Shown piece by piece: positions 1-49,101 of a stretch of DNA of 64,000 nt. The DNA is taken from positions 85,923 to 149,922 of the forward strand of contig JAOZFT010000035.1 of the NCBI GenBank assembly GCA_027492035.1, given 5' to 3'. Position numbers and translations under genes: made by a program. The notes beneath the pieces are model-generated. The model was not told the DNA's origin. It did no database searches and saw only the letters and a program-made list of their open reading frames with translations. Origin of the DNA: Thermoproteota archaeon. GTDB lineage: Archaea > Korarchaeota > JAOZGF01 > JAOZFZ01. Every line of letters begins with the position of its first letter. Within the stretch, counting starts at the first letter, position 1.

Positions 1-78
1 TGGTTCCTTAATGACCTTTTCCAAGTTTAACTGGTAACCGTAAACTCCAGTATCTATGCTTTTCGACCCTACAATCAA
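1..78 (-). CDS. Partial CDS (N-terminus only, runs off the window edge); possibly a second acyl-CoA synthetase
   Basis: TTG at 78 opens MIVGSKSIDTGVYGYQLNLEKVIKEP to the edge; lies 11 nt downstream of the ligase gene; the YQLNL segment recalls AlkK-type ligase N-termini. Confidence 0.4.
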   Translation of the reverse strand, partial: MIVGSKSIDTGVYGYQLNLEKVIKEP

Positions 79-89
79 AGGGAAATTTT

Positions 90-1823
90 TCATTTTAAGC
101 CCTCTCCACCTCTCATTTTTCGGGCAGCTTCTTCCCTAAGTACTCTACGTAAAATTTTTCCAACCATGTTTTTCTTAAGCTGCTTCCTAAATTCCACTTT
201 CTTCGGTACTTTGAAAGGGGCCAATCTCACTTTGCACCAGTCGATAATATCTTTCTCGGTTGCTTTCGCTCCCTCCTTCAAAACAACATAAGCCTTAATT
301 ATTTGGCCTACAGTTTCAGTAGGCACTCCTACTACGCAGGCTTCTTTAACTGAAGGGTGACTATAAATAACGTTTTCGATTTCCTTTGGAAAAACAGAGT
401 ATCCCTTATATTTTATCATGTCTTTCTTTCTTTCCATTATATAAAGGAAACCTTCATCATCGAGTTTACCTATGTCTCCTGTTCTTAACCAAATTTTTCC
501 GTTTATCTCAACCAATGCTTCATTGTTTCTTTCAGGGTCGTTCAAGTACCCTTTCATTACTTGCGGCCCGTGTACAAGAATTTCACCTACTTCACCAAGT
601 TCAAGGAACTTGTTTTCTTCAGGATCCGCTATGGCCACAGTGGTTCCAGGTAAAGGAACGCCTGCAGTGCTTGGTTTCCTTAATTCTTTCCAGGGAGGAT
701 TAATACATACTGCAGGCCCTGCCTCTGTTAAACCGTAACCTTCAACAATAATTGAACCTGTCATTTCTTCAAATTTTCTTTGTACTTCACTCGGTAAAAC
801 ATCTGCAGCACAAATGCATACTTTCAACTTCTTTAAGTTGTACTTTTGAACTTTTCCGTAGTTAGCTAATAAATTATAAATGGTGGGTACCCCTGCAAAC
901 AAGGCTGCTTTATATTTACTTAATTTTTCTAAAACTTCTTTTGTTTCAAATTTTGGAAGCAGCACTACACTTATTCCACTGTACAAGGCTGTTAACAACT
1001 GTATACAGCCAAAACTGTGAAAAATAGGTAAAACCAAGACTGTGGATTCTTTTTTCTCGATTAAAGGCGGTAAAACCCATTTGTTGATCTGGATAACATT
1101 GGCTAAGACGTTGTAATGGGTAAGTAAAACCCCTTTAGGCGTACCTGTAGTTCCTCCAGTGAATAAAAGCAGTGCAACATCTTCTTTGGGATTATTTTTT
1201 AAAAAAACAGGTGTAGGTTTATTTTTAAGTAATTCATTGAAGAAATAAATGTTCCTTCCATGTTTAACTTTTCTAGTGGGTACTTTCCTAAACAGTTTAC
1301 CTAGGAAACCTTTAAATGGAGGAAGAAATTCTGTTAGACACGTATATATAACGCTGAGCTTCTGCTCCTTTTCTGAAATCTCTCTTTCCAAATTTTCCAC
1401 TTTATCTTCGAAAATATCCAGCGAAACCAAAAACTTTGCTTTAGATGCTTTAACTATATATTTAATTTCTCTTACTGTGTAAAGGGGGTTAATGGGTAAA
1501 ACTGCTCCTCCTGCCTTCAATACCCCAAACAAAGCTATAACAAATTGGGGACAGTTGGGAAGTAAAACGCCTACAACATCCCCTTTTTCCATGCCAAGTT
1601 TATCTTTTAAACCTGAAGCAAGCCTCCAAGCTAAGTCCTTTATCTCCAAATAAGAAATTTTCTTTCCAAAGAAATACACTGCAGGGAAATCTTTGTATTT
1701 TTCAGCTCCCTCCTCCAAAACGCTAAAAAGCGGTTTGTTTGGTACTTTAACGTCAGGAGTTGCGTTTCCTCCATACTTTGTCAACCAAGGTTTTGATTTA
1801 ATGTAGTCGGGAACTTTACTCAT
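90..1823 (-). CDS. fadD: Long-chain fatty acid-CoA ligase (AMP-binding, FadD-like)
   Basis: FTGGTTGTPKG P-loop, GYGLTE, RTGDIG and C-terminal GKILRR motifs. Confidence 0.9.
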   Translation of the reverse strand: MSKVPDYIKSKPWLTKYGGNATPDVKVPNKPLFSVLEEGAEKYKDFPAVYFFGKKISYLEIKDLAWRLASGLKDKLGMEKGDVVGVLLPNCPQFVIALFGVLKAGGAVLPINPLYTVREIKYIVKASKAKFLVSLDIFEDKVENLEREISEKEQKLSVIYTCLTEFLPPFKGFLGKLFRKVPTRKVKHGRNIYFFNELLKNKPTPVFLKNNPKEDVALLLFTGGTTGTPKGVLLTHYNVLANVIQINKWVLPPLIEKKESTVLVLPIFHSFGCIQLLTALYSGISVVLLPKFETKEVLEKLSKYKAALFAGVPTIYNLLANYGKVQKYNLKKLKVCICAADVLPSEVQRKFEEMTGSIIVEGYGLTEAGPAVCINPPWKELRKPSTAGVPLPGTTVAIADPEENKFLELGEVGEILVHGPQVMKGYLNDPERNNEALVEINGKIWLRTGDIGKLDDEGFLYIMERKKDMIKYKGYSVFPKEIENVIYSHPSVKEACVVGVPTETVGQIIKAYVVLKEGAKATEKDIIDWCKVRLAPFKVPKKVEFRKQLKKNMVGKILRRVLREEAARKMRGGEGLK

Positions 1824-1859
1824 TTACAACCTCTCCCTTTTTTCTTTTTTGAATTTCTT

Positions 1860-3017
1860 CTAAATGAAAATTTTACCAAGCAAGCTTTTCATCAAAATAT
1901 ACCTCTGCACTTCATTTGTTCCTTCCCCTATCTCCACTAACTTGGCGTCTCTGTAATATCTCTCTAGGTTGTTCTCTCTGCTGTAGCCGTAACCACCGAA
2001 AATTTGGATGGCGTTTCTAGTTATTTCAACAGTTTTCATAGCTGAATAAAGTTTAGCCATTGAAGCAAGTTTCACATATTCAAGGTCTCCTTTATCCTTT
2101 AACCAGGCTGCTTTATAAGTTAACAGTCTCATTATTTCGATATCCATAGCCATGTCTGTTAACATCCTTTGGATAGCCTGTCTTTTGATTAATGGTTTAC
2201 CGAAAGCTACTCTTTGTTTAGCGTACTTTAAAGATTCTTCATAGGCTGCTTGACTTAACCCTATACCAGCGGATGAAGCATAAATTCTGCTTTCGTCCAG
2301 TGAAAACATTGCTACACTGAATCCTTCATTTTTCTCCCCTATCAAGTTTTCTTTTGGTACGTGACAGCCTTTAAAAGTCACTTCAGCTGTTCCCGTTCCC
2401 CTGAAACCCATAACAGGTACTTTACGTGTTTCAACGTTTTCATCTCTCTCAACGATAAATGCTGAAATGCCCCTATGTTTATCCTCAACCTTACCTGTCC
2501 TGGCAAAAACTACAAAGAAATCAGCCACTAAACCAGCTGAAATAAATGTTTTAGTTCCTTCAATGACATATTCATCCCCCTGTTCCACAGCCTTTGTTTG
2601 TATTGAACCTGCATCACTTCCACAGCAAGGTTCGGTTAAAGCGAAAGCCCCAATAAATTTACCTTTAGCTATCCCGGTTAAATACTTCTCTTTCTGTTCT
2701 TCACTGCCAAATAAGGTTATAGGTAAAGACGTTAATGCTTCTATTCCTGATAACAGTCCCACTGAGCAACTCACTCTAGCCATTTCTTCACCCACGATCA
2801 CTGTGTCAAGTACGTTGAAACCTAGGCCTCCATATTTTTCAGGAATCCTTACTGCTGGATAACCCATTTTAACAAGTTTTTTATAAATTTCTAACGGGTA
2901 CTCATCTCTTTCATCTATTTCCCTAGCGTAAGGCTTAATTTCTTCCTCAGCAAACTCTCTAACAGCTTTTCTCAAAACTTTATGTTTAGTTTCAAATTCG
3001 AAATTCAATTTAAGCAA
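1860..3017 (-). CDS. Acyl-CoA dehydrogenase
   Basis: FALTEPCCGSDA, GTKTFIS, QIFGGYGY and EIGEGTNEVQR motifs; co-oriented with the ligase. Confidence 0.93.
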   Translation of the reverse strand: MLKLNFEFETKHKVLRKAVREFAEEEIKPYAREIDERDEYPLEIYKKLVKMGYPAVRIPEKYGGLGFNVLDTVIVGEEMARVSCSVGLLSGIEALTSLPITLFGSEEQKEKYLTGIAKGKFIGAFALTEPCCGSDAGSIQTKAVEQGDEYVIEGTKTFISAGLVADFFVVFARTGKVEDKHRGISAFIVERDENVETRKVPVMGFRGTGTAEVTFKGCHVPKENLIGEKNEGFSVAMFSLDESRIYASSAGIGLSQAAYEESLKYAKQRVAFGKPLIKRQAIQRMLTDMAMDIEIMRLLTYKAAWLKDKGDLEYVKLASMAKLYSAMKTVEITRNAIQIFGGYGYSRENNLERYYRDAKLVEIGEGTNEVQRYILMKSLLGKIFI

Positions 3018-3233
3018 CCTCAGCCTTGAATAAGTTTTTAAGCAATCAGGAATTTCTATTTTTTAAAAAACTTAATACAATATCCCCCTAAAGAAAAAGG
3101 TAAAGGAAAGAGTTTTTTATTCATTTCTTCCTCTATAACTTCATGGAACAGGGGGAGATGAATTAATGAACTTTAGAAAAGTTCTTTCCTTCATTAATCC
3201 CTAAAAACCTTTTTCTTCCAGTTTCAATTTTAG

Positions 3234-4028
3234 GTGGTGTTCTTTTTGGTTGCAGAAACGGCTTGGCGGGAATGGGTAATTACAGAAATTGACTTCACTA
3301 AGTTTTCCTGTGAAAAAAAGAAGGTTAGACTTGCAGTTGAGAAACCTTTAACTCTTTACATTAACGGTAAACATTACGCAACCTTTCTAGTTACTCCAAA
3401 TTTTGTAAAGGAACTGGTAATTGGCCACTTATTCTCTACAGGCGTAATTTCTTCTCTGCAAGACATTTCCTCTTTTCAACAAATTTCTTCAAAAGTAATG
3501 GTTGAACTGAAAAGAGGTAACCTGGCTGAAACCAAAAGAATTTACAAGTTGATATCTACTGCTTGTGGCGCAATAGGGAAGGAGTCACTAATAAACGAAA
3601 TTAAACTCCGTAAAATAAAATGCGAAAACTCTATAACTGTAGGAACAATTGTTGAAGTATACAAAGATGCAAACAAAAGGGCTGAAACACATAAATTAAC
3701 AGCAGGTACACATATAGCAGGTGCTTACACCCTTCAAGGCAAAAATGTTTTCTTTGTGGAAGACATAGGGAGACATAACGCCATAGATAAATTAATAGGG
3801 TTGACCATTACAAGGAAAAGGGAAGAAACTCCAATAATTGTCACTTCAGGCAGACCAACCATAGACCTGGTTTCAAAAATAGTAAGAACTAAAACTCCCT
3901 TCTTGATCTCTTTTTCTAGACCAACTCACAGAGCTTCAAAACTGGCTGAAGAAAAAAACTTAACCTTAATCACAATTAAAAAGAAAATTTATTTATTCAG
4001 CGGCAAAGAAAGGGTGGAAACAAACTAG
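3234..4028 (+). CDS. fdhD: Formate dehydrogenase accessory sulfurtransferase FdhD
   Basis: EKPLTLYING, LVIGHLFS, TAGTH, EDIGRHNAIDKLIG and TSGR motifs. Confidence 0.88.
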   Translation: MVFFLVAETAWREWVITEIDFTKFSCEKKKVRLAVEKPLTLYINGKHYATFLVTPNFVKELVIGHLFSTGVISSLQDISSFQQISSKVMVELKRGNLAETKRIYKLISTACGAIGKESLINEIKLRKIKCENSITVGTIVEVYKDANKRAETHKLTAGTHIAGAYTLQGKNVFFVEDIGRHNAIDKLIGLTITRKREETPIIVTSGRPTIDLVSKIVRTKTPFLISFSRPTHRASKLAEEKNLTLITIKKKIYLFSGKERVETN

Positions 4029-4270
4029 AAATCTTTATAAAACCGTCACTTTAATCCATAAACTTTATCCATTATTTATTGGGAAAATTTTGGAGAAAGA
4101 GGAGCTGGATCTTTCTAAATCATTTCAAATGTTCCTTTAAAGTTTCTACCCTCTTCTGTTGTTTGAAACAACTTTCTCTCTTAAAAAAGGAAATAATTTT
4201 ATAAAAAATAAAGGGACATTTCTCTCTTTACTTCCTTTACAAAACAACACTTCTGTAGAGGTGTCTCTTT

Positions 4271-5281
4271 TTGAAATTTTATAAAAACATGCTTGAACTT
4301 GTTGGTAATACTCCTATCATTAAGCTTCAAAAGATAACTAAAAAAGTAGACGCTAATATTTATGTTAAATGTGAATATTTCAACCCTAGTGGAAGCATAA
4401 AGGACAGGATAGCACTTAAAATGGTTGAAGAAGCTGAAAAAGAAGGTGAATTGAAAAAGGGAGGCGTAATTGTTGAAGTAACAAGCGGAAACACAGGGCC
4501 AGCACTGGCTTTTGTAGGGGCCGTTAAAGGATATAAAGTCCATATTTTCATCCCTTCACAATGGACAGGAACCTACAACCCGGAAGACAGAGTAAAAACG
4601 ATGAAAATATATGGTGCAAAAGTAACCCCTTTCCTAACTGAAAAATATGAAGAAATCTTCCAAGGCTTATCTGAAAACGAAGCAGCAGCAGCAACAATAG
4701 CTGTAGGATTGAAGGAATGCTATGAATTCGAAAAAAGAAATAATTTGGTGTGGTGGCCGAATCAACTCTGTAACAGAAACAATGTTTTAGCTCATAAAGA
4801 ATCAACAGGTAAAGAAATAATTGAACAACTTAACGGAGAAATTGATGCTTGGGTTGCTTCTGTAGGCACAGGCGGAACCTTACTTGGGGTGGCTGAGGCA
4901 TTAAAGGAAGAAATAGGAAACGTAAAAACAGTGGCTGTTGAACCTGAAGATGCAAGAGTTACAGAATGGGCTGAGAAAAAATTAATGAGTAAATTCATGA
5001 AACAACTTAATCTTCCACAAAGGAAATCAATAATGGAAATAGCTTTAGAAAAGGGGGTACCTGACAAGGTAATAAGAGTCAGTCATGAAGAAGCAAGAAA
5101 AATGGCTAACAAACTATGTAAAGAAGAAGGATTATTCTGTGGCATATCTTCCGGAGCAAATGTTTATGCAGCCTTGAAAGCAGCTAAGGAAATAGGTGAA
5201 GGAGCAAATATTGTAACTGTTCTAGTGGACAGCAGAGACAGGTACTTTCCTGAGTACCCAAACGAACAGTACACCATCTAA
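4271..5281 (+). CDS. PLP-dependent cysteine synthase / cystathionine beta-synthase family protein (divergent)
   Basis: GNTP, NPSGSIKDR (PLP lysine), TSGNTG, GTGGT and GISSGAN motifs. Confidence 0.85.
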   Translation: MKFYKNMLELVGNTPIIKLQKITKKVDANIYVKCEYFNPSGSIKDRIALKMVEEAEKEGELKKGGVIVEVTSGNTGPALAFVGAVKGYKVHIFIPSQWTGTYNPEDRVKTMKIYGAKVTPFLTEKYEEIFQGLSENEAAAATIAVGLKECYEFEKRNNLVWWPNQLCNRNNVLAHKESTGKEIIEQLNGEIDAWVASVGTGGTLLGVAEALKEEIGNVKTVAVEPEDARVTEWAEKKLMSKFMKQLNLPQRKSIMEIALEKGVPDKVIRVSHEEARKMANKLCKEEGLFCGISSGANVYAALKAAKEIGEGANIVTVLVDSRDRYFPEYPNEQYTI

Positions 5282-5613
5282 AACCTTATCCTTACAAAGT
5301 AATGCTCCAGATTTCTTTTCAGCAATTACTTCCTAAAAGAAATAAATCTAACCCTCTCCATTACTGAACTTGAAGGATAGAAGTCAATTCAAGCTACGAC
5401 TGAAAATCTTTACTATGCGCATTTTTAAAAAATAAAGCTGTCTTTCAGAAACTTAACAGGTTCCCATACTCAATATACTTAATGAATAATTGACAGGTAA
5501 TAGAGTCTGAAACAAAGAAAAGCAAAATTAAAAAATTTATCCCCCTTAATCTTTACGTAGAAAAAGTGAAAAATTCCTTTCTTTAAAGATTTATTAAAGG
5601 TTAAGGAAAAAGG

Positions 5614-7014
5614 TTGAAAACGGAGAAAGTAGAAATGAGTTTAGACCAAGAAATTATTTCTTCCTTTAAAAAACTTGGTTTAACAGAGTATGAAGCCAAG
5701 ACTTACTTAACTTTAGTTAAGAAAGCAGAAGCTTCTCCTTTAGAGATAACATTAGCTTCTAAAGTTCCTCAACCTAAAGTTTATACTTCCCTCAACTCTT
5801 TAGCAGCAAAAGGGTTAGTTGAAGTGGTTAGTGAGAGACCTAGAAAATGTAAAGCTGTAAACATAAGAGAAGCTGTCAGGAGGCTTTTTGAAAAAAAAAT
5901 AACTGAACTAGGTGAAAACGCCAAAAAAATAATTGAGAAAACAATTAAGGAGGAGTTAGAGGGAAAAATTCAGCCTCATGAAATATATAACTTAATAGGG
6001 GAGGCTGAAACAAAAAAGAAATTGATAGATATGCTATCCCTTGCAGAAAAAGAAGTTTTATTAGCAACTAAAAACTTAGAAATTCTTAGGTTTAAGAAAA
6101 TAAAGGATGTGCTTTCCAAGTTAGCAATGAAAGGGGTGGAATTTAAGGTTTTGGTTGAGTTCGACTCTTTAGATACAGAAACCCTTCTTTTTCTAAAAAA
6201 TTTTGGGACAAGAGTGGTTGATGTGTTGGAGGAACAGTCCCTTGTCACAGTTGATGGAAAGATAGCAATTACTACTTCGGTAATCGAAACTGGAATAGGG
6301 CCTTCGGTTTGGTTCTCAACCTTTACAACCTGTACTGAATGCGTAAAGGCTTATGTGCAGAAACTCAACTCTGCATGGCTTAAAGGTTCTAAACTTCCTC
6401 AAGAAACAAGGAATAAAGGAGTAAAAATAGCAGCTATAGTGCTTGCAGCAGGGAAACCAAGTTCAGAAAACAAAAACGTACTTCTTTATCCTTGGAGGAA
6501 CAAACCAGTAATTTGTCACGTAATAGAAGCATTAATGTTTTCTGATGTCGACGAAATAGTGGTAGTAACAGGTTATCAATCCAAAAAAATACAGAAGGTA
6601 ATAAATGAAAGATTTAGCAATGTTTCATTTGTTCATAATAAAAACTACGGTGAAGGGATGCTTTCCTCTTTTAAGAAGGGACTTGAAAAAGTTAAAGAGT
6701 CAGATGCTGTTCTTCTAATGCTTGGAGACCAACCCTTCATTGAACCATCAATAATAAACGAAATGATAAAGGAATTTAAACGAAATAAAGAAAAGAAAAA
6801 AGTCATAAACCCAGTGTTCAAAGGAAAAAGAGGACATCCTGTGCTTATCTCTTCCCATTTATATAAAGAAATACTGGGCACAAACAATAAGAAAACTGTA
6901 AGGGAAGTTTTAAACCAATACAAGGAGTCCACAGTACTAATTGAAGGGAAAGATTGGGTTTTAATGGATGTAAACACAATTAAAGACTTAGAAAAAGCCG
7001 AAAAAATAATTTAA
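5614..7014 (+). CDS. TrmB-family transcription regulator fused to a MocA/MobA-like NTP-transferase domain
   Basis: N-terminal LGLTEYEAKTY...VPQPKVYTSLNSLAAKGLV (TrmB wHTH); C-terminal AAIVLAAG, NYGEGMLSSFKKG, LGDQP, KRGHPV, DVNTIKD (MocA-like). Confidence 0.85.
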   Translation: MKTEKVEMSLDQEIISSFKKLGLTEYEAKTYLTLVKKAEASPLEITLASKVPQPKVYTSLNSLAAKGLVEVVSERPRKCKAVNIREAVRRLFEKKITELGENAKKIIEKTIKEELEGKIQPHEIYNLIGEAETKKKLIDMLSLAEKEVLLATKNLEILRFKKIKDVLSKLAMKGVEFKVLVEFDSLDTETLLFLKNFGTRVVDVLEEQSLVTVDGKIAITTSVIETGIGPSVWFSTFTTCTECVKAYVQKLNSAWLKGSKLPQETRNKGVKIAAIVLAAGKPSSENKNVLLYPWRNKPVICHVIEALMFSDVDEIVVVTGYQSKKIQKVINERFSNVSFVHNKNYGEGMLSSFKKGLEKVKESDAVLLMLGDQPFIEPSIINEMIKEFKRNKEKKKVINPVFKGKRGHPVLISSHLYKEILGTNNKKTVREVLNQYKESTVLIEGKDWVLMDVNTIKDLEKAEKII

Positions 7015-7017
7015 CCA

Positions 7018-7938
7018 TTAAAAAGCCTTCAATATAAATCCTTCATCGGTGATTTCGCACCTAATTCTTTCCTTGTTTTCCAGATAACTCACCATAGCTT
7101 TAACAGGTACTATTGTCAAATAAAACTGTAAAATACTCTTCTTCACCCCGTAACAGTTTAAAAGGTAAACAGTTAAGGAATCAACTCTGTTTACTCCTTT
7201 CTTAACTGCTGAAACAATTAATCTCTCCACTTCAAACACTCTAGAAACATTTAATTTAACCAAATTTTCTGCTTCATTTGCTTTAAGGGGGTAGCCGTGA
7301 CTGGGAACCACGATCTTAACTTTTTCGCCATTTAAATAATCCAAAATCTTTTTTAAACTGTTTAAATATTCTTCAGTGTTACTGTGGAAAGGTACACCAT
7401 ACTTAGAAAGAATGCTTTTTGAAAAGAAAGAGTCAGCAGCTAGAAAAACCTTTTTCGGAGTTAAAATCCCCACCTGGCCCAAAGAATGACCGGGAATAGA
7501 CACAACTTTCAATTTACTCCCTGAAAAATCCACATCTAATTCCTCAGCTTCATCAAGAAATAATTTGTTAGTAACCAAGGAAGGTTTAGCCAGTAATTCT
7601 CTTCCCTTTAACTCAACCAAAGGGTCAGCTAAACCATAAATGGCAAAGGGTTCAAAATATGGGTTCTCAATAAAGCAAGCCTCTTTGGCCTCAGAATAAA
7701 TTGAAGCATTAAATTTCCCCTGAAGATAACTATTCCCACCGATGTGGTCGCTGTGGTGGTGAGTGTTAAAAATAGAAACTTCAGAAAGGCCTAAATGATT
7801 TAGAACCTTAAATATCTTCCGTCCTCTCTCCTTGCCGCTGCCAGTATCTACAATAAGAGCTTTGGTCCCAGTTAAAGGAAAAACAAAGACATTAATAGCT
7901 CCTGGAAGCATTAAAACGTCTCTAATTTTTATGTACAA
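7018..7938 (-). CDS. MBL-fold metallo-hydrolase
   Basis: VDTG, THHHSDHIGG, PGHS and PSHG motifs. Confidence 0.88.
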   Translation of the reverse strand: MYIKIRDVLMLPGAINVFVFPLTGTKALIVDTGSGKERGRKIFKVLNHLGLSEVSIFNTHHHSDHIGGNSYLQGKFNASIYSEAKEACFIENPYFEPFAIYGLADPLVELKGRELLAKPSLVTNKLFLDEAEELDVDFSGSKLKVVSIPGHSLGQVGILTPKKVFLAADSFFSKSILSKYGVPFHSNTEEYLNSLKKILDYLNGEKVKIVVPSHGYPLKANEAENLVKLNVSRVFEVERLIVSAVKKGVNRVDSLTVYLLNCYGVKKSILQFYLTIVPVKAMVSYLENKERIRCEITDEGFILKAF

Positions 7939-8078
7939 AATAACCCACCATTAAACTTGTGAAAACAATTCTTTTAACACAGGCCAAAAATAAAAATATT
8001 TTTTAAAGGAAGTTCTGTAAAAGAGTTATGAATCAGTTTAAAAAGATTTAGAAAGAAAGGAAGGGTAAGGAGGAATCA

Positions 8079-8549
8079 ATGAAGAAAATTTATACCATTG
8101 GACACAGTAATAGAAGCCAAGAAGAATTCGTTCTCCTCTTGAAAACGTATAAAATAAAAAAAGTTGTAGATGTTAGAAGATTCCCAACAAGCAAAATTCA
8201 GTACTTTAATAAAGAAAATCTGCAAAAAATTCTTAAACGGGAAGGGATAAAGTATACTTACTTAGGTAACCAGCTAGGGGGATATAGGAAAGAAGGGTAC
8301 AGAGACTACATGGAAACTTCCATGTTCAAGGAAGGACTAAAAAAACTTGAAGAAACAGCTGAGAAAAGTGAAACAGCCATAATGTGCACTGAAAAGCTTC
8401 CATGGAAGTGCCACCGAAAACACATAAGCATGATGCTGCAGAAAAAGGGATGGGTAGTAACTCATATTATAGACAGGCAAAAAACATGGACACCTAAAAA
8501 GCCTGAAAATAAAAACTTAAATGATGAAACTCTAACAAACTTTCTTTAA
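8079..8549 (+). CDS. DUF488 domain protein
   Basis: IYTIGHSNR, DVRRFP, LGG and MCTE...CHR motifs. Confidence 0.85.
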   Translation: MKKIYTIGHSNRSQEEFVLLLKTYKIKKVVDVRRFPTSKIQYFNKENLQKILKREGIKYTYLGNQLGGYRKEGYRDYMETSMFKEGLKKLEETAEKSETAIMCTEKLPWKCHRKHISMMLQKKGWVVTHIIDRQKTWTPKKPENKNLNDETLTNFL

Positions 8550-8564
8550 ACCTCCTGGGCGCCT

Positions 8565-9014
8565 CTATTTCTCTTCAAGAATATACTTTTCGTTGTTTCG
8601 ATGTTCTCTCATTATACATTTACCCATTATTACAGTTAGTCCAGCTGAAACTGCCTTTTCAGCTGCTTTATCATCTCTTATTCCAAGCTGCATCCATATA
8701 ACATAAGGAGTCCCGTATTTCCTCCTCAACTTTATAGCTTGATTCACTATCGACATAACTTCTTCCGATGGCCTAAAAATATTTATAACCTCCAATCTTT
8801 TTTTCTTATTTTCTGGTAGGTCCAATATACTTCCATAACATTTCTCGCCTAATACTTCATCAGCAAAAGGATTAATTGGTATTACTTCATATCCCTTTGA
8901 TTTAAGGTAGGACGCAACTTGGAAACTGTCCTTTTCAGGGTTTCTAGATACACCTACAACTGCTATTGTCCTGTACTTTCTAAGCACATTCAAAATTGTT
9001 TCCCTTAAACTCAC
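8565..9014 (-). CDS. CoA-binding protein (YccU-like)
   Basis: IAVVGVS, GYEVIPINP, IFRP and WMQLGI motifs. Confidence 0.88.
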   Translation of the reverse strand: MSLRETILNVLRKYRTIAVVGVSRNPEKDSFQVASYLKSKGYEVIPINPFADEVLGEKCYGSILDLPENKKKRLEVINIFRPSEEVMSIVNQAIKLRRKYGTPYVIWMQLGIRDDKAAEKAVSAGLTVIMGKCIMREHRNNEKYILEEK

Positions 9015-9121
9015 ATTCCTCCCCTACTTAACTATAAAATTTAAGTTATGTATGTGAAAAGGAACACCTGAAAGGAACCCTTTTTAAAATTTCCTTCATG
9101 AAGCATCTCCCTAACTTATTT

Positions 9122-9745
9122 TTACAATGTTTCTTGGACGAACGAGTTCTCTTTCGGCAAAATCTCTTTTTTATAAAGGGTTAAGCAAGAATTGCAGCAG
9201 AAGTATAGTTCTCTGTCATCAACAACCAATTTAAGAGGTTCTTCCTTTATTTCCTTCCCGCAATATGTACATGAAACTTTAACTCCGAATCCTGGCCTTA
9301 ATTTCGGCCCGTAATCCTCTTTAAGTGTTTTAACAACCACAAATGTGTTAACAGTCTCAATTCCTTCTATTTTACTCAATTTATTCCTCAAAAACTCTTG
9401 GTAACCGGAGAAACTAGGTGTTGAAACTTTGAGGATTAAATCGAAAGATCCACTAGTCATATATAAACCGGTAACGTCCTCTATTCTGAGAATATCCTTA
9501 ATAGCTTTGTTCATTAATGACACCTTTGTTTTTAACCCTATAAAGAAAGTTAATCCACCAATAAGTTTTTCAGGGTCTATTTCTACCGTGAAACCTTTAA
9601 TTACACCGAGAGATCTCAATTTTCTAACCCTATTCTTTACAGTAGGTAAGCTGACACCTGTCTTTTCAGCGATTTTTGAGAAACTCATCCTGGCATCTTT
9701 CTGTAAGAGAATCATTATCTCTATATCTAAATTATCAAGTATCAA
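9122..9745 (-). CDS. Lrp/AsnC regulator with C-terminal TRASH domain (CopR-like copper regulator)
   Basis: LDNLD...DARMSF...IA HTH, AsnC RAM domain, CTYCGKEI...FCCNSC; divergent from copA. Confidence 0.88.
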   Translation of the reverse strand: MILDNLDIEIMILLQKDARMSFSKIAEKTGVSLPTVKNRVRKLRSLGVIKGFTVEIDPEKLIGGLTFFIGLKTKVSLMNKAIKDILRIEDVTGLYMTSGSFDLILKVSTPSFSGYQEFLRNKLSKIEGIETVNTFVVVKTLKEDYGPKLRPGFGVKVSCTYCGKEIKEEPLKLVVDDRELYFCCNSCLTLYKKEILPKENSFVQETL

Positions 9746-9994
9746 AACGGCTTCAACTCCTCATGAGGGAAAAGCTGGAAAAGACAAAATAAGTTCCTTA
9801 TATATCTCTCTTTCGTTATTGAAAAAAAGTTCCCCTTTTTTTTCAAAAAAATAAATTTTTCTACTTCGGAAAATTATATAAAAAAGGTTTTTTTCTCCTT
9901 TATTCTTCAGAAACTGAAAAGGAAGATTTTTAATCAGTAAAACACCTGTAGTAACTGGCGTAAAAGTAAACAAGGAATACTTAGAGGTAAAAAG

Positions 9995-12610
9995 ATGACA
10001 GAAAATCGTAAGAAAAATTTTGAACTCAAAATATCTGACATGTTTTCTGAAGCTCATGCTTTAGAAATTAAGAATACCTTACTCAGCCTAAATGGGGTTA
10101 TCGACGCAAAAGTTAGTTTCAAAAATGGGACTGTTAAGGTGAAATATGACCCTACAAAATTAAAAATTGCTGACATAGAAAAAGCAGTAAAAAATGCTGG
10201 TTATAAAGTAATCAAAGAAGTTACTTTGAAAATTGGAGGAATGACTTGTGCCAGTTGTGTGAGGACAATTGAGAACTCCCTTAAAAAATTAGATGGCACC
10301 TTAAGTGTTAATGTTAACCTTAACGCTGAAGAAGCACATGTTGTTTATAACCCGGAAAAAACCACAGTAAAAAATATGAAGAAAGCTGTTGAGGAGACAG
10401 GTTACCACTACCTAGGGGTTAAGGGAGAAATAGAAAATTTAGAGGGAAAAGTAAAGAAAAGAAACTTAAGAGATAAACGCAGCAAATTTCTTGTAGGTTT
10501 TGTTGTAGGCATTCCCTTAATGCTTCTCAAATATGTTCCAATTAACACTTCCTCTCTACTATCCTACTCAACATTAGCTGTTTCATTTCCAGCCTTTATT
10601 TATATAAGTTACCCCATTTTCGCTGCTGCATATCGTTCCATTAAGAATATGAACCTTAACATGGATGTTATGTACTCCATGGGGATAGGCGTAGCCTTTA
10701 CCTCCAGTATCTTAAGCACCTTTAACATACTTTCTAAAGAATTTTCATTTTACGATACAGCAATTCTTCTCGCTGCATTCCTTACAGTTGGGCGATATTT
10801 GGAAGAAAAGGCAAAGGGGAAAACTTCAGATGCAATAAAGAAACTAATTAATTTGCAGCCACAGAAAGCCATTGTACTACGTAACAGTAACGAAATCGAA
10901 ATACCTGTAAAAAATGTTCAAATAAACGACATAATTCTAGTGAAACCGGGAGGAAAAATACCTGTAGACGGTGAAGTTATTGAAGGCGAAAGCTATGTAG
11001 ATGAATCAATGATTACAGGGGAACCTGTCCCTGTTTTGAAAAGGGAAGGGGACGAAGTTATTGGTGGAACCATCAACAAGAACAGCACAATTAAATTTAA
11101 AGCGACAAAAGTAGGGAGGGAGACTTTACTCTCACAAATCATAAAACTAGTTGAAGAAGCCCAAAGTTCGAAACCACCTATTCAAAGGATTGCGGATAAA
11201 GCAGTAAGGTATTTTATCCCTGTAGTGTTAACAGTTGCAATTTCTTCCTTCATTGGCTGGTACTTAATTTTACATAGCACCTTGCTTTTTGCTTTGACCT
11301 GTATGATTTCAATACTTGTAGTGGCATGTCCTTGCGCTCTTGGACTTGCTACACCTACAGCTGTCACTGTAGGTATTGGACGTGGAGCAGAGCTGGGTGT
11401 CCTTATTAAACAGGGTGAAGCTCTTGAAAGATGCGAGAAACTGACAACTGTGGTATTTGACAAAACCGGAACCCTCACAAAAGGTAAACCTGAAGTTACA
11501 GATTTAGTGAGTGTAGGAATTAATGAAAAGAAACTATTGAAGTTAGTGGCTAGTGTTGAAAAAAGTTCTCAGCACCCGTTAGCTGAAGCTATTGTGAAAA
11601 AAGCTCAGGAAGAAGGTTTAAAGCTTGAAGAAAGTGAAAACTTTGACACATTTGAAGGAAAAGGGGTAACAGCAAAAATAAATGGGAAAGAAGTCCTTGT
11701 GGGAAGTAAAAAGTTCTTAAAGGAAAGGAATATCCCCTGCCCTGAAGAAATTGAAGAAAAATTGTTTCAACTTGAAAATGAAGGAAAAACAGTGATTTTA
11801 GTTTCGTTAAGTGGCAAAATCTGCGGTGCAATAGCTGTTACTGACAGATTAAGAGAAAAAGCCAAGGAGGCAATAAAAGAACTTAAGAAAATGAAACTTG
11901 ATGTTGTTATGATTACGGGTGACAACGCCAGAACTGCCTACACCATTGCTAAACAAATAGGGATCAAAAAGGTATTAGCAGAGGTCCTGCCGCAAGATAA
12001 AGTCAAGGAAATAAAGAAACTTCAAGAAAAAGGGGAAGTAGTGGCTTTTGTAGGTGACGGAATAAATGATGCCCCTGCACTTGCAAGTGCAGATGTAGGT
12101 ATTGCAATAGGTAGTGGTACAGACGTAGCAATTGAAACAGGTGAAATAATACTTGTAAAGGATAACCTTTTAGATGTTGTTGCAGCGCTGCAGCTAAGTA
12201 AGAAAGTAATGTCAAGGATAAAACAAAACCTGTTCTGGGCTTTCGCGTACAACGCTGCCTTGATTCCTATGGCAGCCGGGATACTACATCCCCTCTTAAA
12301 AGTTGATTTTAGGCCTGAATTCGCAGGACTTGCAATGGCAATGAGCTCTGTAACAGTTGTAACACTTTCTCTTCTGCTACGGAAATATGTACCACCTATA
12401 AAGAAAAATTTTGGAACCGTGAAAAAACATGTGAAGGAGGCGAGAAAAATGGTTGTGGACCCTGTTTGTAAAATGGTTGTAGATGAAGAAACAGCAAGAT
12501 TTAGAAGTGAATATAGAGGTAAGACGTACTACTTCTGCAGCTTAAGTTGTAAGGAAGCATTTGATGAAAACCCTGAAAAATATGTTGGCAAGGTTCTTTC
12601 GCACAAGTGA
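9995..12610 (+). CDS. copA: Cu(I)-translocating P1B-type ATPase with C-terminal YHS/TRASH domain
   Basis: [35 protein letters not shown]; C-terminal DPVCKM...YYFCSLSC. Confidence 0.93.
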
Positions 12611-24048: not shown

Positions 24049-25122
24049 GTGCTACCTTTCAACAGTTTAAAAAATTTAAAGGAAGTAGGAATGACCACCC
24101 TTATTCTACTTGCAGGTGGTGAAAGCAAAAGGTTCCATGAACCTAATAAACCTAAAATTGACAAAGCCCTGCTTAAAGTAGGAAATAAAAGGTTTTTAGA
24201 GAGAATAATTGAAAATGTAGGCCGGGAAGTTGAAGAGATTATTGTGACGGTTAATACTGAAGAGAGGAAGAGACTATATGAAAAGGTTTTATGGCACTTA
24301 AGCAGCAAATTTGAAATCAAAATTTTGAAAGATGCGAAATCTCAAATTAAAGGCCCGTTAAACGGAATAAGGACAGGTCTAGAGTATTCTGAAGGGTCGC
24401 TATGTTTAACTCTGCCTGTTGATGTACCCTTTATTAAACCTGAAGTTGTGAGGGAAATCTTAAAGGAAGCTGTTAAATGGGAAACCACAACACTAATTTG
24501 GCCAAATGGGGGCATTGAACCCTTAATAGCGACTTATAAAAGGGAATATGCTGTGAAAGCATCTAAAATACTTTTATCTTTCAAAAGGTCAAGACCTGAC
24601 GACTTAGTAAGGGCTGCGTCTGACACCTTCTTTTTAAACGTAAATGCTTTGAGGAAGTTTGATCCAGAACTAGAAAGTTTCAGAAACATAAATTCACTTA
24701 AAGACTTGATTAAGAAGGATGGAAGGAAATGGCAGGAAGGGGAACTAAAGAATTCGGTACTTATAAAAGCTGAAGAAAAAATTTTCCATGGGAGCCACTT
24801 GTTTAACAAGGAGGAACTAATTCTTTTAAACAACACTTTCTTCCCAGGTGAGAGAAAAAGAAACTTTTTCTGGGTTGGTTTAATTTCAAACTTTTTTGGT
24901 GAAAAAACCAAAAAGAGGGAAGTTGCAGAAGAATTTTTAAAAGAAGCTTATGAAGCATTTACTAAAGAAAGAATGCTCTATATAAATAAAAAAGTGTATT
25001 TTCTAGCTTTCCACTCAGGAATTGATGCGTCAAAGTGCTACATGAAAATTTTTCGGGGAGAAAAGAATAAAGAATTAGAGAGGGAAATAAGTTTTTTTGC
25101 AAGCAAATTCAAAAACATTTGA
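24049..25122 (+). CDS. mobA: Molybdenum cofactor guanylyltransferase MobA with C-terminal extension
   Basis: LAGGESKRF, DKAL, GPLNGI, PVDVPF, EPL and FRNINS motifs; ATG at MTTLILLAGG is the likelier start. Confidence 0.78.
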   Translation: MLPFNSLKNLKEVGMTTLILLAGGESKRFHEPNKPKIDKALLKVGNKRFLERIIENVGREVEEIIVTVNTEERKRLYEKVLWHLSSKFEIKILKDAKSQIKGPLNGIRTGLEYSEGSLCLTLPVDVPFIKPEVVREILKEAVKWETTTLIWPNGGIEPLIATYKREYAVKASKILLSFKRSRPDDLVRAASDTFFLNVNALRKFDPELESFRNINSLKDLIKKDGRKWQEGELKNSVLIKAEEKIFHGSHLFNKEELILLNNTFFPGERKRNFFWVGLISNFFGEKTKKREVAEEFLKEAYEAFTKERMLYINKKVYFLAFHSGIDASKCYMKIFRGEKNKELEREISFFASKFKNI

Positions 25123-32216: not shown

Positions 32217-33332
32217 TTACAACCCGAGTGGAGAAGGAAGCTGTTTTCCGAATTTAAACCATATGTAACAAGTTCCCTCCGTTGAAACCATGCATGGACC
32301 CACTGGGTTCCTTGGTGTGCATTTACGTTTGAAAAGATGGCATTGTGTAGGATAAGCCTTCCCAAGCACCACTTTATCACATATACATCCTTTAGGCATA
32401 GAAGTCTTTTTTATTTCTTTTTTGATCGAGTATTTTACCCTCGCATCCCTGTAACTGTACCTCTCCTTAATCTTGAACCCTGAAGAAGGAATTCTTCCTA
32501 TACCCCTCCATATAGTTTCTGTTACTTCAAAAGCGTTCTTAATTATTTCTTTAGCTTTAATGTTTCCCTCTCTCTCCACACTTCTCTTGTACTCATTTTC
32601 AAGTTTAGCTTCTCCTTCACTTACTTGATTAACAATCATAAGAATCGCTAATAAAACATCTACCGGTTCAAAACCGGCAACCACAACAGATACACCGTAT
32701 TCGCTGACGAAATTCCAAGGTTCAAACCCTATTACAGTTGACACATGGCCTGGAGCTATTATTCCTCTTATTTCAACGTCTCCGCTTTCCAACAAATACT
32801 TCATCACCGGGGGAGTTAAACGTAAAGAAGTGAGGATGCTGAAGTTCTCCTCTTTGGCTTTAATTATTTCATATGCAACAGCTGGAGCTGTGGTTTCAAA
32901 CCCCACAGCAAAGAAGACCACTTCCTTATCTGGGTTTTTCTCAGCTAGTTTCAAAGCGTCGTGTGGACTATAAACTACTTTCACATCAAAACCTTCACTT
33001 TTAACTTCCCATAAACTTTTATTTAATGCAGGAACCCTAACCATGTCGCCGAAAGTAGTTAAAATAATGTTTTCGTTTTCGGCTAACTGAATTGCTTCTT
33101 CAACATCTTCAATAGCTGCTACGCAAACTGGACACCCTGGACCTGCTACAAGTTCAATGTTTTCAGGCATAAGAGACCTTAAACCAAAATAACTAATCGT
33201 GTATTCATGGGTACCGCAGAAATGCATTATTTTTGTTTTTTCAAGGGTTTGAGCTTTAGCAGTGATCATTTTCGCTATCCTTAATGCTAAGGCTCTGTTC
33301 CTGTATCCCTGTAAGAAATTGTTCCACAACAA
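32217..33332 (-). CDS. hypD: Hydrogenase maturation protein HypD
   Basis: CGTH, GPGCPVC, GFETT, PGHVS and GPCMVSTEGTC motifs. Confidence 0.95.
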   Translation of the reverse strand: MLWNNFLQGYRNRALALRIAKMITAKAQTLEKTKIMHFCGTHEYTISYFGLRSLMPENIELVAGPGCPVCVAAIEDVEEAIQLAENENIILTTFGDMVRVPALNKSLWEVKSEGFDVKVVYSPHDALKLAEKNPDKEVVFFAVGFETTAPAVAYEIIKAKEENFSILTSLRLTPPVMKYLLESGDVEIRGIIAPGHVSTVIGFEPWNFVSEYGVSVVVAGFEPVDVLLAILMIVNQVSEGEAKLENEYKRSVEREGNIKAKEIIKNAFEVTETIWRGIGRIPSSGFKIKERYSYRDARVKYSIKKEIKKTSMPKGCICDKVVLGKAYPTQCHLFKRKCTPRNPVGPCMVSTEGTCYIWFKFGKQLPSPLGL

Positions 33333-33462
33333 AAACTACCTTCACCCTTCTAATTTTGAAACCTTCAATTAAAGAAAGGGTAATTTTTTCAAAACGTTTA
33401 CCTTTTTTAAAAGGGGAAAGTTAAATAAACTTCCCTTTAAAATTTTATCTTTGATTTTCTAG

Positions 33463-34494
33463 GTGCCAAGTATGGATGGAAAAGTTACACTTTCCCATGG
33501 AGCAGGTGGCGAATTAACTTTTGAAGTGGTAAAAAGATTTTTCTTGGAAAAGTTCCTCCACCGCTCAGCCATGGATGGTGTAGGTTTAGATGCTCTTGAT
33601 GATGGTGCCTCAATTAAAACAAAAAATTTAGAAATAGTTTTTTCAATAGATAACTACACTGTCAACCCTATCTTCTTTCCAGGTGGGGACATTGGCAGGT
33701 TAGCTGTTTCAGGAACAATAAATGATGTTTCAATGCTGGGAGCTAAACCTGTAGCTATTCTTGATGCGGTAACAGTTGAGGAAGGTTTTTCATTTAATGA
33801 TTTAGAATTAATTGTTAACTCTATGAAAGAAGCAGCTGAAGAAGTGGATGTAGCAATAGTTTCAGGCGACTTTAAAGTTATGCCTAAAGGCAAACTTGAC
33901 AAAATAGTTATTGCAGCCTGCGGTGTAGGAGTCACTGAAAAGGGAAAAATTATTCTAGACAGTGGCGCCAAACCAGGTGACAAAGTTTTAGTTACAGGTA
34001 CAATAGGCGACCACGGAGTGGCTTTAATTTCGAAAAGAGAAGGAATAGAGTTCGAAACTGAAATTATGTCCGATACAGCCCCTATCTGGTGTGTTGTTGA
34101 AGCAGCTTTAAAGGTTGGTGGGGTTCATGCTATGAAAGATCCTACAAGAGGGGGATTAGCTGGTGCATTAAACGAAATAGCTGAAAAATCAAAAGTAACT
34201 ATTTATGTAAATGAAGAAAAAATTCCCTTTAAGGAACCAGTTATAGCTGCTGCTGAAATGTTGGGTTTAAGTCCTTATGAACTCTTAAGTGAAGGAAAGG
34301 CTGTAATAGTTGTGGATAGGGAGTTGGCTGAAGAAACTTTAAATGAAATAAAGAAAACAAAGTATGGAAAAGAAGCTGAAATCATCGGTGAAGTAAGAAG
34401 GGAAAAACCTGGCTATGTACTCATAAATACATTAGCAGGAGGAACAAGGATACTTGAAAAACCAATAGGAGAACCTATACCTAGGATTTGTTAA
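33463..34494 (+). CDS. hypE: Hydrogenase maturation carbamoyl dehydratase HypE
   Basis: HGAGG, FFPGGDIG, DPTRGG and C-terminal PRIC. Confidence 0.95.
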   Translation: MPSMDGKVTLSHGAGGELTFEVVKRFFLEKFLHRSAMDGVGLDALDDGASIKTKNLEIVFSIDNYTVNPIFFPGGDIGRLAVSGTINDVSMLGAKPVAILDAVTVEEGFSFNDLELIVNSMKEAAEEVDVAIVSGDFKVMPKGKLDKIVIAACGVGVTEKGKIILDSGAKPGDKVLVTGTIGDHGVALISKREGIEFETEIMSDTAPIWCVVEAALKVGGVHAMKDPTRGGLAGALNEIAEKSKVTIYVNEEKIPFKEPVIAAAEMLGLSPYELLSEGKAVIVVDRELAEETLNEIKKTKYGKEAEIIGEVRREKPGYVLINTLAGGTRILEKPIGEPIPRIC

Positions 34495-34527
34495 GAACTG
34501 AAAAAAGTTCCGTGGCCACAAGAAAAA

Positions 34528-36867: not shown

Positions 36868-36915
36868 TTAAAACCAACTTGTAACACATTCTACCTCTAG
36901 ATTACCTTTAAAAAC

Positions 36916-37137
36916 TTAGGTAGTTTCTTTCAGTATACTCACCCAAAGTTTCAATGTTTCCTTAGCTTCTTCAATGTCTAGTTTCTGAATAGCAAAACCT
37001 ACATGAATCAAAACATAATCCCCAACTTTCACGTCATCTAGCATAGAAATAATAGCCTCTCTCCTTACTCCACCAAAATCAACCACCGCCCTTTCTCCCT
37101 TAATTTCCAAAACCTTCCCTGGAACCGCTAAACACAT
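36916..37137 (-). CDS. hypC: Hydrogenase assembly chaperone HypC
   Basis: MCLAVPG and VGDYVLIHVGFAI motifs. Confidence 0.95.
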   Translation of the reverse strand: MCLAVPGKVLEIKGERAVVDFGGVRREAIISMLDDVKVGDYVLIHVGFAIQKLDIEEAKETLKLWVSILKETT

Positions 37138-37410
37138 CTTTTACGCCTCCTTAACAAACCCAGAGCCATAAATTGGGCCTTAAGTAAATACCTTAAAACA
37201 ATATTTATAAATCGTTACCACCCCCAAAAAGTTCATAAGGAACCGAAAAATATAAGGTAAACCTAAAGAAAACTTTTTCCAAAGTAAGTAGCTAACTAGT
37301 TAATAAAAAATCAACCAGTCAAAAACCTTTTTAAGCAACATGTTTATAAACATAAATCAGCAGCAAATGGGAATCTACCACCAGTTTCTCAGCAGTTACT
37401 TTTTTTAGGT

Positions 37411-38097
37411 GTGGCCTCTTTGCAAAAAAATAAAATATTGAAGGTTGATGAGGGAGAAATACTTGACATTGAAATTGAAGAAGATTTACTGAAAGCTAAC
37501 AAAGAACTTGCATCTGTTAACAGAAAAACCTTTGACTTAAATAACATTAAATCAGTAAACGTTATGGGGGCAATAGGCTCAGGGAAAACAAGCATCATCC
37601 AATGGCTCATAAAAGAACTGAAAAACAAGTATAAAATAGCAGTAATAGCAGGTGACGTAACAACAGGTATAGATGCTGAAAGAATTAAAGAAGCAGGAGC
37701 GGAATCTATACAAATCAACACAGGAAGAGGTTGCCACCTAGACGCCTTAATGATTAGGAAAGCAATCAAAAAATTAAACCTCAAAGAAATAAACCTCCTC
37801 TTTATAGAAAACGTTGGAAACCTAATCTGCCCCGCCGACTTCCCACTAGGAACCCACCTAAACATGGTGGTTGTAAGCGTCACAGAAGGGCCTTATATGA
37901 TCATCAAACACCCCTTCATAATCAAGGAAGCCGATATAGTTGTAATAAATAAAATAGACTTAGCTGACCAAATGGAAGTAAATGTGAACAAACTAGTTAA
38001 GGATGTGGGAAGAATTAACTCTTCAGCTAAAGTAGTTACAACTTCTGTAAAGGAAGGAATTGGTTTAAATGGTTTAATTGAAGCTTTAAAACTCTAA
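37411..38097 (+). CDS. hypB: Hydrogenase nickel-insertion GTPase HypB
   Basis: GSGKT, GCHLDA, ENVGNLICP and NKID motifs. Confidence 0.95.
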   Translation: MASLQKNKILKVDEGEILDIEIEEDLLKANKELASVNRKTFDLNNIKSVNVMGAIGSGKTSIIQWLIKELKNKYKIAVIAGDVTTGIDAERIKEAGAESIQINTGRGCHLDALMIRKAIKKLNLKEINLLFIENVGNLICPADFPLGTHLNMVVVSVTEGPYMIIKHPFIIKEADIVVINKIDLADQMEVNVNKLVKDVGRINSSAKVVTTSVKEGIGLNGLIEALKL

Positions 38098-38110
38098 AAA
38101 AGCGATTAAA

Positions 38111-38500
38111 TTGCATGAGTTCTCAATAGCCAATGCAATACTGCAAAAGATTCTAAACGTAGCTGAAAAAAGCGCTGCAGAAGAAATAAAGGAAGCAAAC
38201 ATTTCAATAGGGGAACTAACCTTTCTTAACAAAGAACAGCTAATTTTCGCCTTAAAAGTCCTGTCTAAAGAAACAAAGGCTGAGAAATGTAAATTCAACA
38301 TATGTGTCATAAAAACAAAAATTAAATGCCTTAACTGCGGCTACAAAGGAAAAGCTGTTTATGAGGGACCCGAATACCACATTCTAAACTTTAAGATACC
38401 ACTTAACTGCCCAAAATGCAAAAGTAAAAAAATAAAGATAGTGGAAGGGAAAGAAGTACTTCTTAAAAACCTGAAAATAAAAATTAAGATTCCTAAATAA
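38111..38500 (+). CDS. hypA: Hydrogenase nickel metallochaperone HypA
   Basis: MHEFSIA, CLNCG...CPKC, GKE. Confidence 0.93.
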   Translation: MHEFSIANAILQKILNVAEKSAAEEIKEANISIGELTFLNKEQLIFALKVLSKETKAEKCKFNICVIKTKIKCLNCGYKGKAVYEGPEYHILNFKIPLNCPKCKSKKIKIVEGKEVLLKNLKIKIKIPK

Positions 38501-38766
38501 TTCTGGGAAGTGTTTTCGCAAAAGGTTTTACTTTCCTATTGTTTCCAACCTAAATAAACTTCCTAATTCTCCTCTTAGAACATAGCGCAGATGTTGAAGC
38601 CTCTTTATACACAGTTAAATACAGATGCACTTTAAAGGTTTTATTTTTGAATTTTTTTTAGAAAAAAAGTTTCTAAATGGTAATGAATGAATAATATTCA
38701 TTTTTTTATTGTAACATTAAACTTAAAAAAGGGAAGTAAGTTTCTTTTAGCTAAAAACAGAAGGAA

Positions 38767-39750: not shown

Positions 39751-39765
39751 AAGGAGGATATAGAA

Positions 39766-49077: not shown

Positions 49078-49101
49078 AACAGTTAAGAAGGAAGGGAGGA
49101 G

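Follow-up and report, generated by a model that had tools for sequence, protein, structure and literature searches.

Regulators of the TrmB family (PF01978), among them the structurally solved TrmBL2 (5bpd) and TrmB (3qph), share a winged helix-turn-helix (wHTH), a long helix and a phospholipase D (PLD)-like domain. The CTP:molybdopterin cytidylyltransferase MocA (TIGR03310) and its Sulfolobus relative Q97W15 (3d5n) have a nucleotidyltransferase fold with LAAG, GDQP, GHP and DxN motifs. Both sets of features are combined in one gene of a korarchaeotal genome, which we studied in a stretch of 64,000 nucleotides (nt) of contig JAOZFT010000035.1 (positions 85,923 to 149,922, forward strand; hereafter the window). 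Unlike TrmB, the encoded fusion protein has no sugar-binding subdomain and carries an appended MocA-like domain and a CxxC motif. Unlike MocA, the appended domain lacks the Arg, the Lys and the common Ser of the nucleotide-binding loop, scores below the family cut-off, is attached to a DNA-binding module and, in contrast to the genome's canonical copy, has no XdhC gene as a partner. We give an even chance to the reading that the fusion is a pseudoenzyme sensor of the molybdenum/tungsten (Mo/W) pterin cofactor that controls DNA binding.

Three described systems are close to this proposal. The bacterial regulator NrtR resembles the fusion in joining an enzyme-like effector to a winged-helix domain and in regulating the matching cofactor pathway, according to the available part of its description (PMC2330246), but it has another enzyme fold, belongs to another DNA-binding family and has a defined operator and effector. 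In the archaeal repressor ThiR, as far as the accessible source goes, a cofactor-biosynthesis enzyme domain (ThiN) likewise serves a repressor; ThiR differs in its unrelated fold and in its link to thiamine instead of a pterin cofactor. The function proposed for the fusion is that of the molybdenum cofactor (Moco) riboswitch, which in the consulted portion of PMC2408646 senses the Mo/W cofactor and controls genes for transport, synthesis and use; unlike the fusion, it is an RNA and is bacterial. The fusion joins a DNA-binding domain to an enzyme-like domain without catalytic residues, as detected by Pfam and alignment, which is the architecture of an enzyme-derived sensor regulator.

The C-terminal domain belongs with MocA by both sequence and predicted fold. 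Pfam NTP_transf_3 (PF12804) matches residues 274-437 (E 1.9e-29, 103.4 bits), and residues 271-461 align by sequence to 3d5n (E 1.9e-22). The modelled domain, in which the predicted local distance difference test (pLDDT) value is mostly above 90, matched 3d5n in Foldseek with a target-normalised template modelling (TM) score of 0.92 and a root-mean-square deviation of 1.8 A, Rv0371c with TM 0.86-0.89 and Escherichia coli MobA (1e5k) with TM 0.78. The best NCBIfam families were TIGR03310 and DVU_1551 at 135 bits, all others reaching at most 80; the score against the MocA equivalog TIGR03310, 135.6 bits, is under the cut-off of 186.45.

The signature loop of this domain is degenerate. Aligned with 106 standalone homologues, the window protein and its orthologue P0002 have Ser and Phe, respectively, in place of the loop Arg (106/106), Val and Ile in place of the Lys (105/106), and Pro and Lys in place of the Ser (98/106). 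Across the superfamily, as established for MobA, GlmU and IspD, the lost Arg and Lys are the residues that hold the triphosphate and the leaving pyrophosphate. The other motifs survive: LAAG, G320, N342, G348, S352, G356, D372, P374, G407-H408-P409 and D452 are retained, as is G280 (106/106 in standalone homologues). D372, the Asp of GDQP, is present in 106/106 standalone homologues and kept in both orthologues. The GHP residues occur in standalone homologues at 97/106 (G407), 65/106 (H408, with Asn in 41/106) and 106/106 (P409). D452 (104/106) is kept, and position 454, which is Asp in 104/106 and Asn in 2/106, is Asn in both fused orthologues. The initial annotation had listed exactly this pattern, with Ser, Arg and Lys lost and GDQP, GHP and the terminal DxNT preserved, and direct translation and alignment bear it out. 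In MobA, motif 12-25 serves GTP binding, and motifs 78-82, 100-103 and 176-182 complete the sites for GTP and Mo-molybdopterin (Mo-MPT), as stated in the available part of PMC4633490. Judged by alignment, only the equivalent of 12-25 is destroyed in the fused domain. Because the triphosphate residues are lost and residues of the base and pterin sites are kept, we propose that the domain binds Mo- or W-molybdopterin, or molybdopterin cytosine dinucleotide (MCD), without catalysis.

Loss of the loop is exceptional among MocA-like domains. A hidden Markov model built from the 106 standalone sequences was run over 359 collected proteins and gave 340 domain matches, 7 of which are fragments without the loop region. 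Arg and Lys were both kept in 321 of the 340, including 156/158 standalone proteins and 165/165 domains of other multidomain proteins (at least 260 amino acids, aa); the partners in those checked for Pfam domains were YqeC, XdhC, MoCF_biosynth or a second, tandem MocA-like domain. The loop Arg was kept in none of the seven TrmB fusions. Three further proteins without Arg and Lys were set apart after inspection and do not form an independent count. P0209, P0148 and P0100 combine MocA-like domains that have degenerate loops with extensions at the N-terminus. At residues 4-57, P0209 carries a domain of the Phd/YefM antitoxin type (38.3 bits; cut-off 29.8), and its loop has Tyr in place of the Arg and Met in place of the Lys; the 85-aa extensions of P0148 and P0100 have no Pfam match.

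The fusion is not peculiar to this assembly, a point on which the initial annotation had let its reading depend: copies occur in independent assemblies, at least four, of two genera. Two contigs encode the identical protein, and a third encodes a variant (P0292) that differs by one residue. The orthologue P0002 is intact, 463 aa long and 56% identical to the window protein. In genome G001, of the same family and another genus, the fusion gene is split over two contig ends and 412/412 residues are identical to P0002. An assembly artefact or a lost stop codon is ruled out by the copies on several contigs together with the intact orthologue.

The long-fusion architecture is rare. Full-length matches were found in only G000 and G001 among 41 related genomes, and a scan of genome contigs returned the G001 contig only; G002, of the same order and 71% complete, showed a standalone MocA only. 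HMMER against 1.84 billion representatives gave 20,653 proteins at E 0.001, and among the best 150 of these, one cluster spans both halves (929 bits; next best 184 bits). A metagenome scan gave plain TrmB-like genes only; 6 of the 80 loci were translated, all of them regulators of about 250 aa without a MocA-like part.

The fused MocA-like domain is maintained under purifying selection. Identity between the two genera is 58.6% for the C-terminal domain, 56.1% for the N-terminal module and 54.1% for the pair of true MocA orthologues from these genomes. The proportion of nonsynonymous differences (pN) is 0.25 in the C-terminal domain (149 codons available; proportion of synonymous differences, pS, 0.86, saturated), 0.29 in the N-terminal module and 0.30 in the standalone MocA pair, synonymous sites being saturated between the two genera throughout (pS 0.76-0.89). 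A tree of 61 MocA-like domains joins the two fused domains as sisters with a support of 100; their stem is long (0.66), and the pair groups weakly with the lineage's own MocA genes, at a support of 78, where values under 80 are not drawn as resolved.

A second, short type of fusion exists. Four sequences of 289-291 aa (P0122 and P0295-P0297) consist of a wHTH (residues 8-74 in P0122), a helix and a MocA-like domain, the three relatives being 59-62% identical to P0122. The loop in all four reads LAAG[KP]VK[DE][EK]DKLL, two residues shorter than the canonical one and without Arg. These proteins have neither the PLD-like domain nor the CxxC motif, and the short type was not found in any of 43 genomes of the phylum. 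As for a single origin of the two types, the tree, with weak support, does not place the short type as sister of the long type.

Our analysis assigned the N-terminal module to the TrmBL2 type. The wHTH passes the gathering score of PF01978 (70.5 bits; cut-off 25.6). Profile A4, built from residues 8-276 and 61 relatives, matches TrmBL2 5bpd end to end (positions 6-252, E 1.5e-36), and its match to TrmB 3qph stops at chain residue 206; by single sequence, residues 9-238 align to residues 2-221 of the 342 of 3qph. By profile and fold, residues 1-262 cover the whole 264-aa TrmBL2. Model 2 (residues 8-276, mean pLDDT 84.1) resolves the middle domain, and Foldseek with this model ranked TrmBL2 first (E 2.7e-17), followed by NucT and Zucchini, whose PLD folds correspond to the middle domain. 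The sugar-binding C-terminal subdomain of TrmB and TrmBL1 (PF11495) was not detected in the fusion at E 0.01. The initial annotation had named a TrmB effector-like domain; a domain is indeed present, but profile and Foldseek identify it as a TrmBL2-type PLD-like body, which is the part common to all TrmB proteins and not the sugar site. By analogy with the TrmB family, the long helix would form a dimerisation coiled coil. The linker between the modules is poorly conserved and probably flexible.

Four Cys residues stand out in the fusion. The CxxC motif (C240 and C243) is invariant between the window protein and P0002. It also occurs in P0144, P0293 and P0294, the closest of the standalone relatives, and in 0/24 other aligned TrmB-like sequences. 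C79 (nt 5848-5850) and C301 (nt 6514-6516) are invariant in both long-fusion orthologues; their standalone counterparts are Phe in P0144, the nearest TrmB-like protein, and Glu in the standalone MocA of G000.

These features suggest a transcription factor of two modules, in which a complete TrmBL2-type module is joined to a duplicated MocA domain that would no longer transfer nucleotides. Having lost the Arg and Lys with which the triphosphate is clamped, the dead domain would still possess the fold's binding regions for pterin cofactor and nucleotide base, and would bind a pterin species without turnover, either Mo- or W-molybdopterin or the product MCD. We infer this ligand binding and the identity of the ligand, as well as an allosteric step in which occupancy of the pocket, acting via the flexible linker, would alter sequence-specific DNA binding by the dimeric TrmBL2-type module. 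The outcome would be tuning of target genes for synthesis or maturation of the cofactor, or for enzymes that use Mo or W. Conserved Cys close to the junction of the domains might help the protein to tell one metal from another, or loaded pterin from empty. We regard the proposed ligand-sensor interpretation as reasonable and as strengthened by independent lines of evidence.

Several observations weigh against this interpretation. The N-terminal module has its closest solved relative in TrmBL2, which is a chromatin protein with non-sequence-specific DNA binding, according to the available part of PMC4158304 and the title of 5bpd. The conserved CxxC and the two other conserved Cys residues could be the real sensor. 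A D-x-G pair (Asp in 64/106 and Gly in 86/106 standalone homologues) has changed in the fused domains, Asp to Lys or Gly and Gly to Thr or Ser; given these changes and the replacement of D454 by Asn, the pterin pocket may also be altered. There is no conserved operon, and the association with cofactor genes, which comes from two genomes only, is suggestive. No operator was found: window positions 5282-5640 and the region upstream of the orthologue (L008 7262-7995) share no palindrome and A/T-rich 9-mers only. The full-length model, with a predicted TM score of 0.55, gives no reliable domain arrangement; its middle domain has pLDDT values below 50, and the Cys positions cannot be placed.

Other explanations of the same features were weighed against a pterin sensor. 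The fold is common to many sugar-nucleotide transferases (IspD, GlmU and TarI), and the base-side motifs LAAG and G-x-M-x-S-S are retained, as would suit a sensor of a nucleotide or other metabolite (e.g. CMP, CDP or a sugar nucleotide) unrelated to the pterin, with a regulon that has no link to Mo or W; nor do the genes that flank the fusion in the window, for a PLP (pyridoxal phosphate) enzyme and a protein of metallo-beta-lactamase fold, count among cofactor genes. We consider such a sensor rather unlikely, since the domain is by far closest to MocA-type proteins (135 bits versus at most 80), the C-terminal motif that the accessible MobA literature ties to Mo-MPT binding is retained, cofactor genes lie nearby in both genera, and the tree groups the fused domains with the lineage's MocA genes, though weakly (78), only the sister pair being resolved. 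A further possibility concerns proteins instead of small molecules: the dead domain might keep the docking surfaces of MocA and MobA for XdhC, MoeA or apo-enzymes, and free partner would then titrate the regulator. MobA and MocA do contact other cofactor proteins. Such partners exist in these genomes, as the canonical MocA genes of G000, G001 and G002 are all paired with XdhC, and the orthologues agree well in the C-terminal, surface-forming half of the fused domain. The best-kept residues, however, are the pocket motifs (LAAG, GxxxS, GDQP, GHP and DxN), as expected for small-molecule binding, and no partner gene adjoins the fusion in both genera, which makes a partner sensor unlikely in our view.

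It is very improbable that the domain combines regulation with continued synthesis of MCD, or of some other dinucleotide cofactor, through a variant mechanism, in the manner of BirA or RbkR. Bifunctional cofactor enzyme-repressors exist, and the domain retains its metal-binding Asp in the GDQP motif as well as most of the fold, but the Arg found in every standalone homologue (106/106) and in all other fusions (165/165) is missing, no conserved basic residue takes its place in the loop of both orthologues, the MocA score is under the equivalog cut-off, and each genome has a canonical MocA elsewhere. The Cys residues lead to another alternative, in which the CxxC with the fusion-specific Cys79 and Cys301 is the sensor, as a site for a metal or an Fe-S cluster or as a redox switch, and the MocA-like domain is a scaffold; or the protein is an architectural chromatin protein like TrmBL2, without ligand control. 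The first form is favoured by the invariance of all four Cys residues, by the different residues at positions 79 and 301 in the standalone counterparts, and by the location of the CxxC at a helix N-terminus in the model, a motif common to the nearest standalone TrmB-like relatives; the second is in line with the chromatin role ascribed to TrmBL2 in the source cited above, as far as available. We hold both forms to be quite improbable. The short fusions have a dead MocA-like domain without the PLD-like domain and CxxC, which makes the dead domain the recurrent feature, the C-terminal domain is at least as constrained as the N-terminal module by identity, and the spatial arrangement of the Cys residues cannot be modelled at full length.

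Table 1. Features of the fusion gene and of related genes in the window (residues counted from TTG 5614 unless stated otherwise)
Feature	Position	Strand	Residues	Basis or remark
Whole gene, TrmBL2-type regulator joined to MocA-like pseudoenzyme domain	5614..7014	+		Open reading frame; starts of P0001 and P0002
Upstream spacer, presumed promoter	5282..5634	+		Read from the sequence
TrmB-type wHTH	5668..5865	+	19-84	Pfam PF01978, E 1e-19; model pLDDT above 90
Long helix behind wHTH	5863..5958	+	84-115	Helix 77-108 (459-aa numbering) in both models
PLD-like alpha/beta domain, TrmBL2 type	5983..6384	+	124-257	Profile, model 2, Foldseek
CxxC motif (C-T-E-C)	6331..6342	+	240-243	Direct translation; start of last helix of TrmBL2-type module (model 2)
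Linker between modules	6373..6414	+	254-267	pLDDT below 50 at 247-260 (459-aa numbering); few identities and an indel between orthologues
MocA/MobA-like nucleotidyltransferase-fold domain, predicted catalytically dead	6424..6996	+	271-461	Pfam, 3d5n, fold
Degenerate NTP-binding signature loop LAAGKPSSENKNVLL	6442..6486	+		Direct translation; alignment
GDQP motif, retained	6724..6735	+		Asp is the family's metal-binding Asp; equivalent to MobA 100-103 motif
GHP motif, retained	6832..6840	+		Translation, alignment
DVNT motif, C-terminal	6967..6978	+		Equivalent to Mo-MPT-binding motif 176-182 of MobA
fdhD, sulfurtransferase maturing formate-dehydrogenase-type cofactor	3234..4028	+		Pfam FdhD-NarQ E 2.3e-51; TIGR00129 148.7 bits, cut-off 140.9
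Cysteine-synthase-like PLP enzyme	4271..5281	+		Pfam PALP E 2.5e-69; best NCBIfam is cysteine synthase, under its cut-off
MobA-like gene	24049..25122	+		Pfam PF12804 E 3e-24; best NCBIfam is MobA, under its cut-off

The fusion gene is a single open frame of 466 aa counted from TTG 5614. The initial annotation had described one continuous frame carrying a TrmB wHTH, a CTEC motif and a MocA-like fold, and the frame, Pfam, translation and fold match all confirm this. ATG 5635 is the likely true start, giving 459 aa, because the database copy P0001 begins there and the orthologue P0002 begins at the equivalent Met; P0001 (459 aa) is identical to the window translation from that point. The spacer behind the PLP-enzyme gene measures 333 nt (353 nt if taken to ATG 5635), with an A/T-rich, TATA-like stretch about 40 nt 5' of ATG 5635. 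Inverted repeats in the spacer are confined to 5292-5343, right after the stop codon of the upstream gene, and a T-rich, 9-nt inverted repeat at 5311-5343 can be read as a terminator-like signal. No Rfam family, and hence no riboswitch, was matched within window positions 1-12000.

Cofactor genes lie no more than two genes away from the fusion in both genera (2/2, two genomes only), and they are different ones, fdhD in the window versus moeA and xanthine dehydrogenase genes in G001. The initial annotation had placed the fusion behind fdhD; fdhD is indeed two genes upstream on the same strand, but not directly so, since the PLP-enzyme gene and the spacer lie between them. On the other side in the window, a gene for a metallo-beta-lactamase-fold protein converges on the fusion gene. 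In G001, moeA lies upstream of the fusion in divergent orientation. Downstream, a nickel-insertion (LarC-type) gene comes first; then, about 1.2 kb away, follow the genes for the large subunit of a xanthine-dehydrogenase-type enzyme and for its 2Fe-2S subunit. Farther upstream on the window's own contig (C38; L123 1-14500), about 6-13 kb before the first base of the window and about 9-17 kb upstream of fdhD, a cluster of genes encodes Ftr, Mch, Mtd, Amidohydro_3, GXGXG, Molybdopterin (PF00384) and Molydop_binding proteins. From these families we read it as a formylmethanofuran dehydrogenase (Fwd) together with methyl-branch enzymes of the tetrahydromethanopterin pathway.

Canonical enzymes are encoded elsewhere. 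The MocA of G000 (195 aa) has the intact loop LAAGKSERMGKNK and scores 198.7 bits against TIGR03310, above the cut-off of 186.45; its gene lies tail to tail with XdhC, and the same MocA-XdhC pair, with intact loops, occurs in G001 and G002. In G002, a DUF364/DUF4213 'heavy-metal chelation' gene (L013 253-999) was observed directly ahead of canonical MocA, XdhC and moeA. In the MobA-like gene of the window the LAGGxSxRF loop is intact, and the C-terminus is extended by about 150 aa that have no family match; the gene belongs to the cofactor machinery of the genome and not to the regulator.

Other features of the window were also recorded. The gene for a regulator of Lrp/AsnC type that carries a TRASH metal-binding domain at its C-terminus (9122-9745, minus strand) and the gene for a P-type ATPase (9995-12610, plus strand; two HMA domains, one YHS domain) are arranged divergently; judging from these domains, the two are probably a copper-responsive pair. 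Positions 32217-42125 contain hypD, a hypE-like gene, hypF, a hypB-like gene and hypA, adjoining the small and large subunits of a NiFe hydrogenase and a maturation protease. About 9 kb at 48400-57400 hold only short open reading frames of 71-161 aa by a simple gene call, and no Rfam match or notable direct repeats were found there.

This study also bears on how the Mo/W cofactor may be sensed. No publication on a TrmB and MocA-like architecture was found in the main texts of the literature on TrmB, MocA and the molybdenum cofactor, in keeping with the initial annotation, which knew of no characterised example; in the main text of the 2014 review of the TrmB family, 'fused', 'fusion' and 'molybd' have no occurrences. 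Likewise, the literature on Moco sensing and on archaeal tungsten and molybdopterin regulation yielded no cofactor-sensing protein transcription factor and no archaeal regulator of cofactor synthesis. Among the papers found, and within the parts of them available, the only described direct sensor of the finished Mo/W cofactor is the bacterial Moco riboswitch. We tentatively suggest, as a possibility that we hold with some doubt, that dead MocA domains form an unrecognised class of protein sensors for the Mo/W pterin cofactor, recruited more than once, in the long TrmBL2-type, the short wHTH and the Phd/YefM-type fusions, and that they are the protein counterpart of the riboswitch in archaea and some other microbes. 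The host organism relies heavily on Mo/W cofactors: its genome has 8 AFOR_N (aldehyde ferredoxin oxidoreductase-type), 3 MoCoBD_1 (xanthine-dehydrogenase-type), 3 MoeA_N and 1 PF00384 matches, along with the putative Fwd cluster. If the dead MocA domain binds the cofactor, it would reveal the way in which archaea adjust the supply of cofactor to the needs of their enzymes, would offer a natural binding protein for a labile cofactor whose measurement is difficult, and would be a clean example of an enzyme turned sensor.

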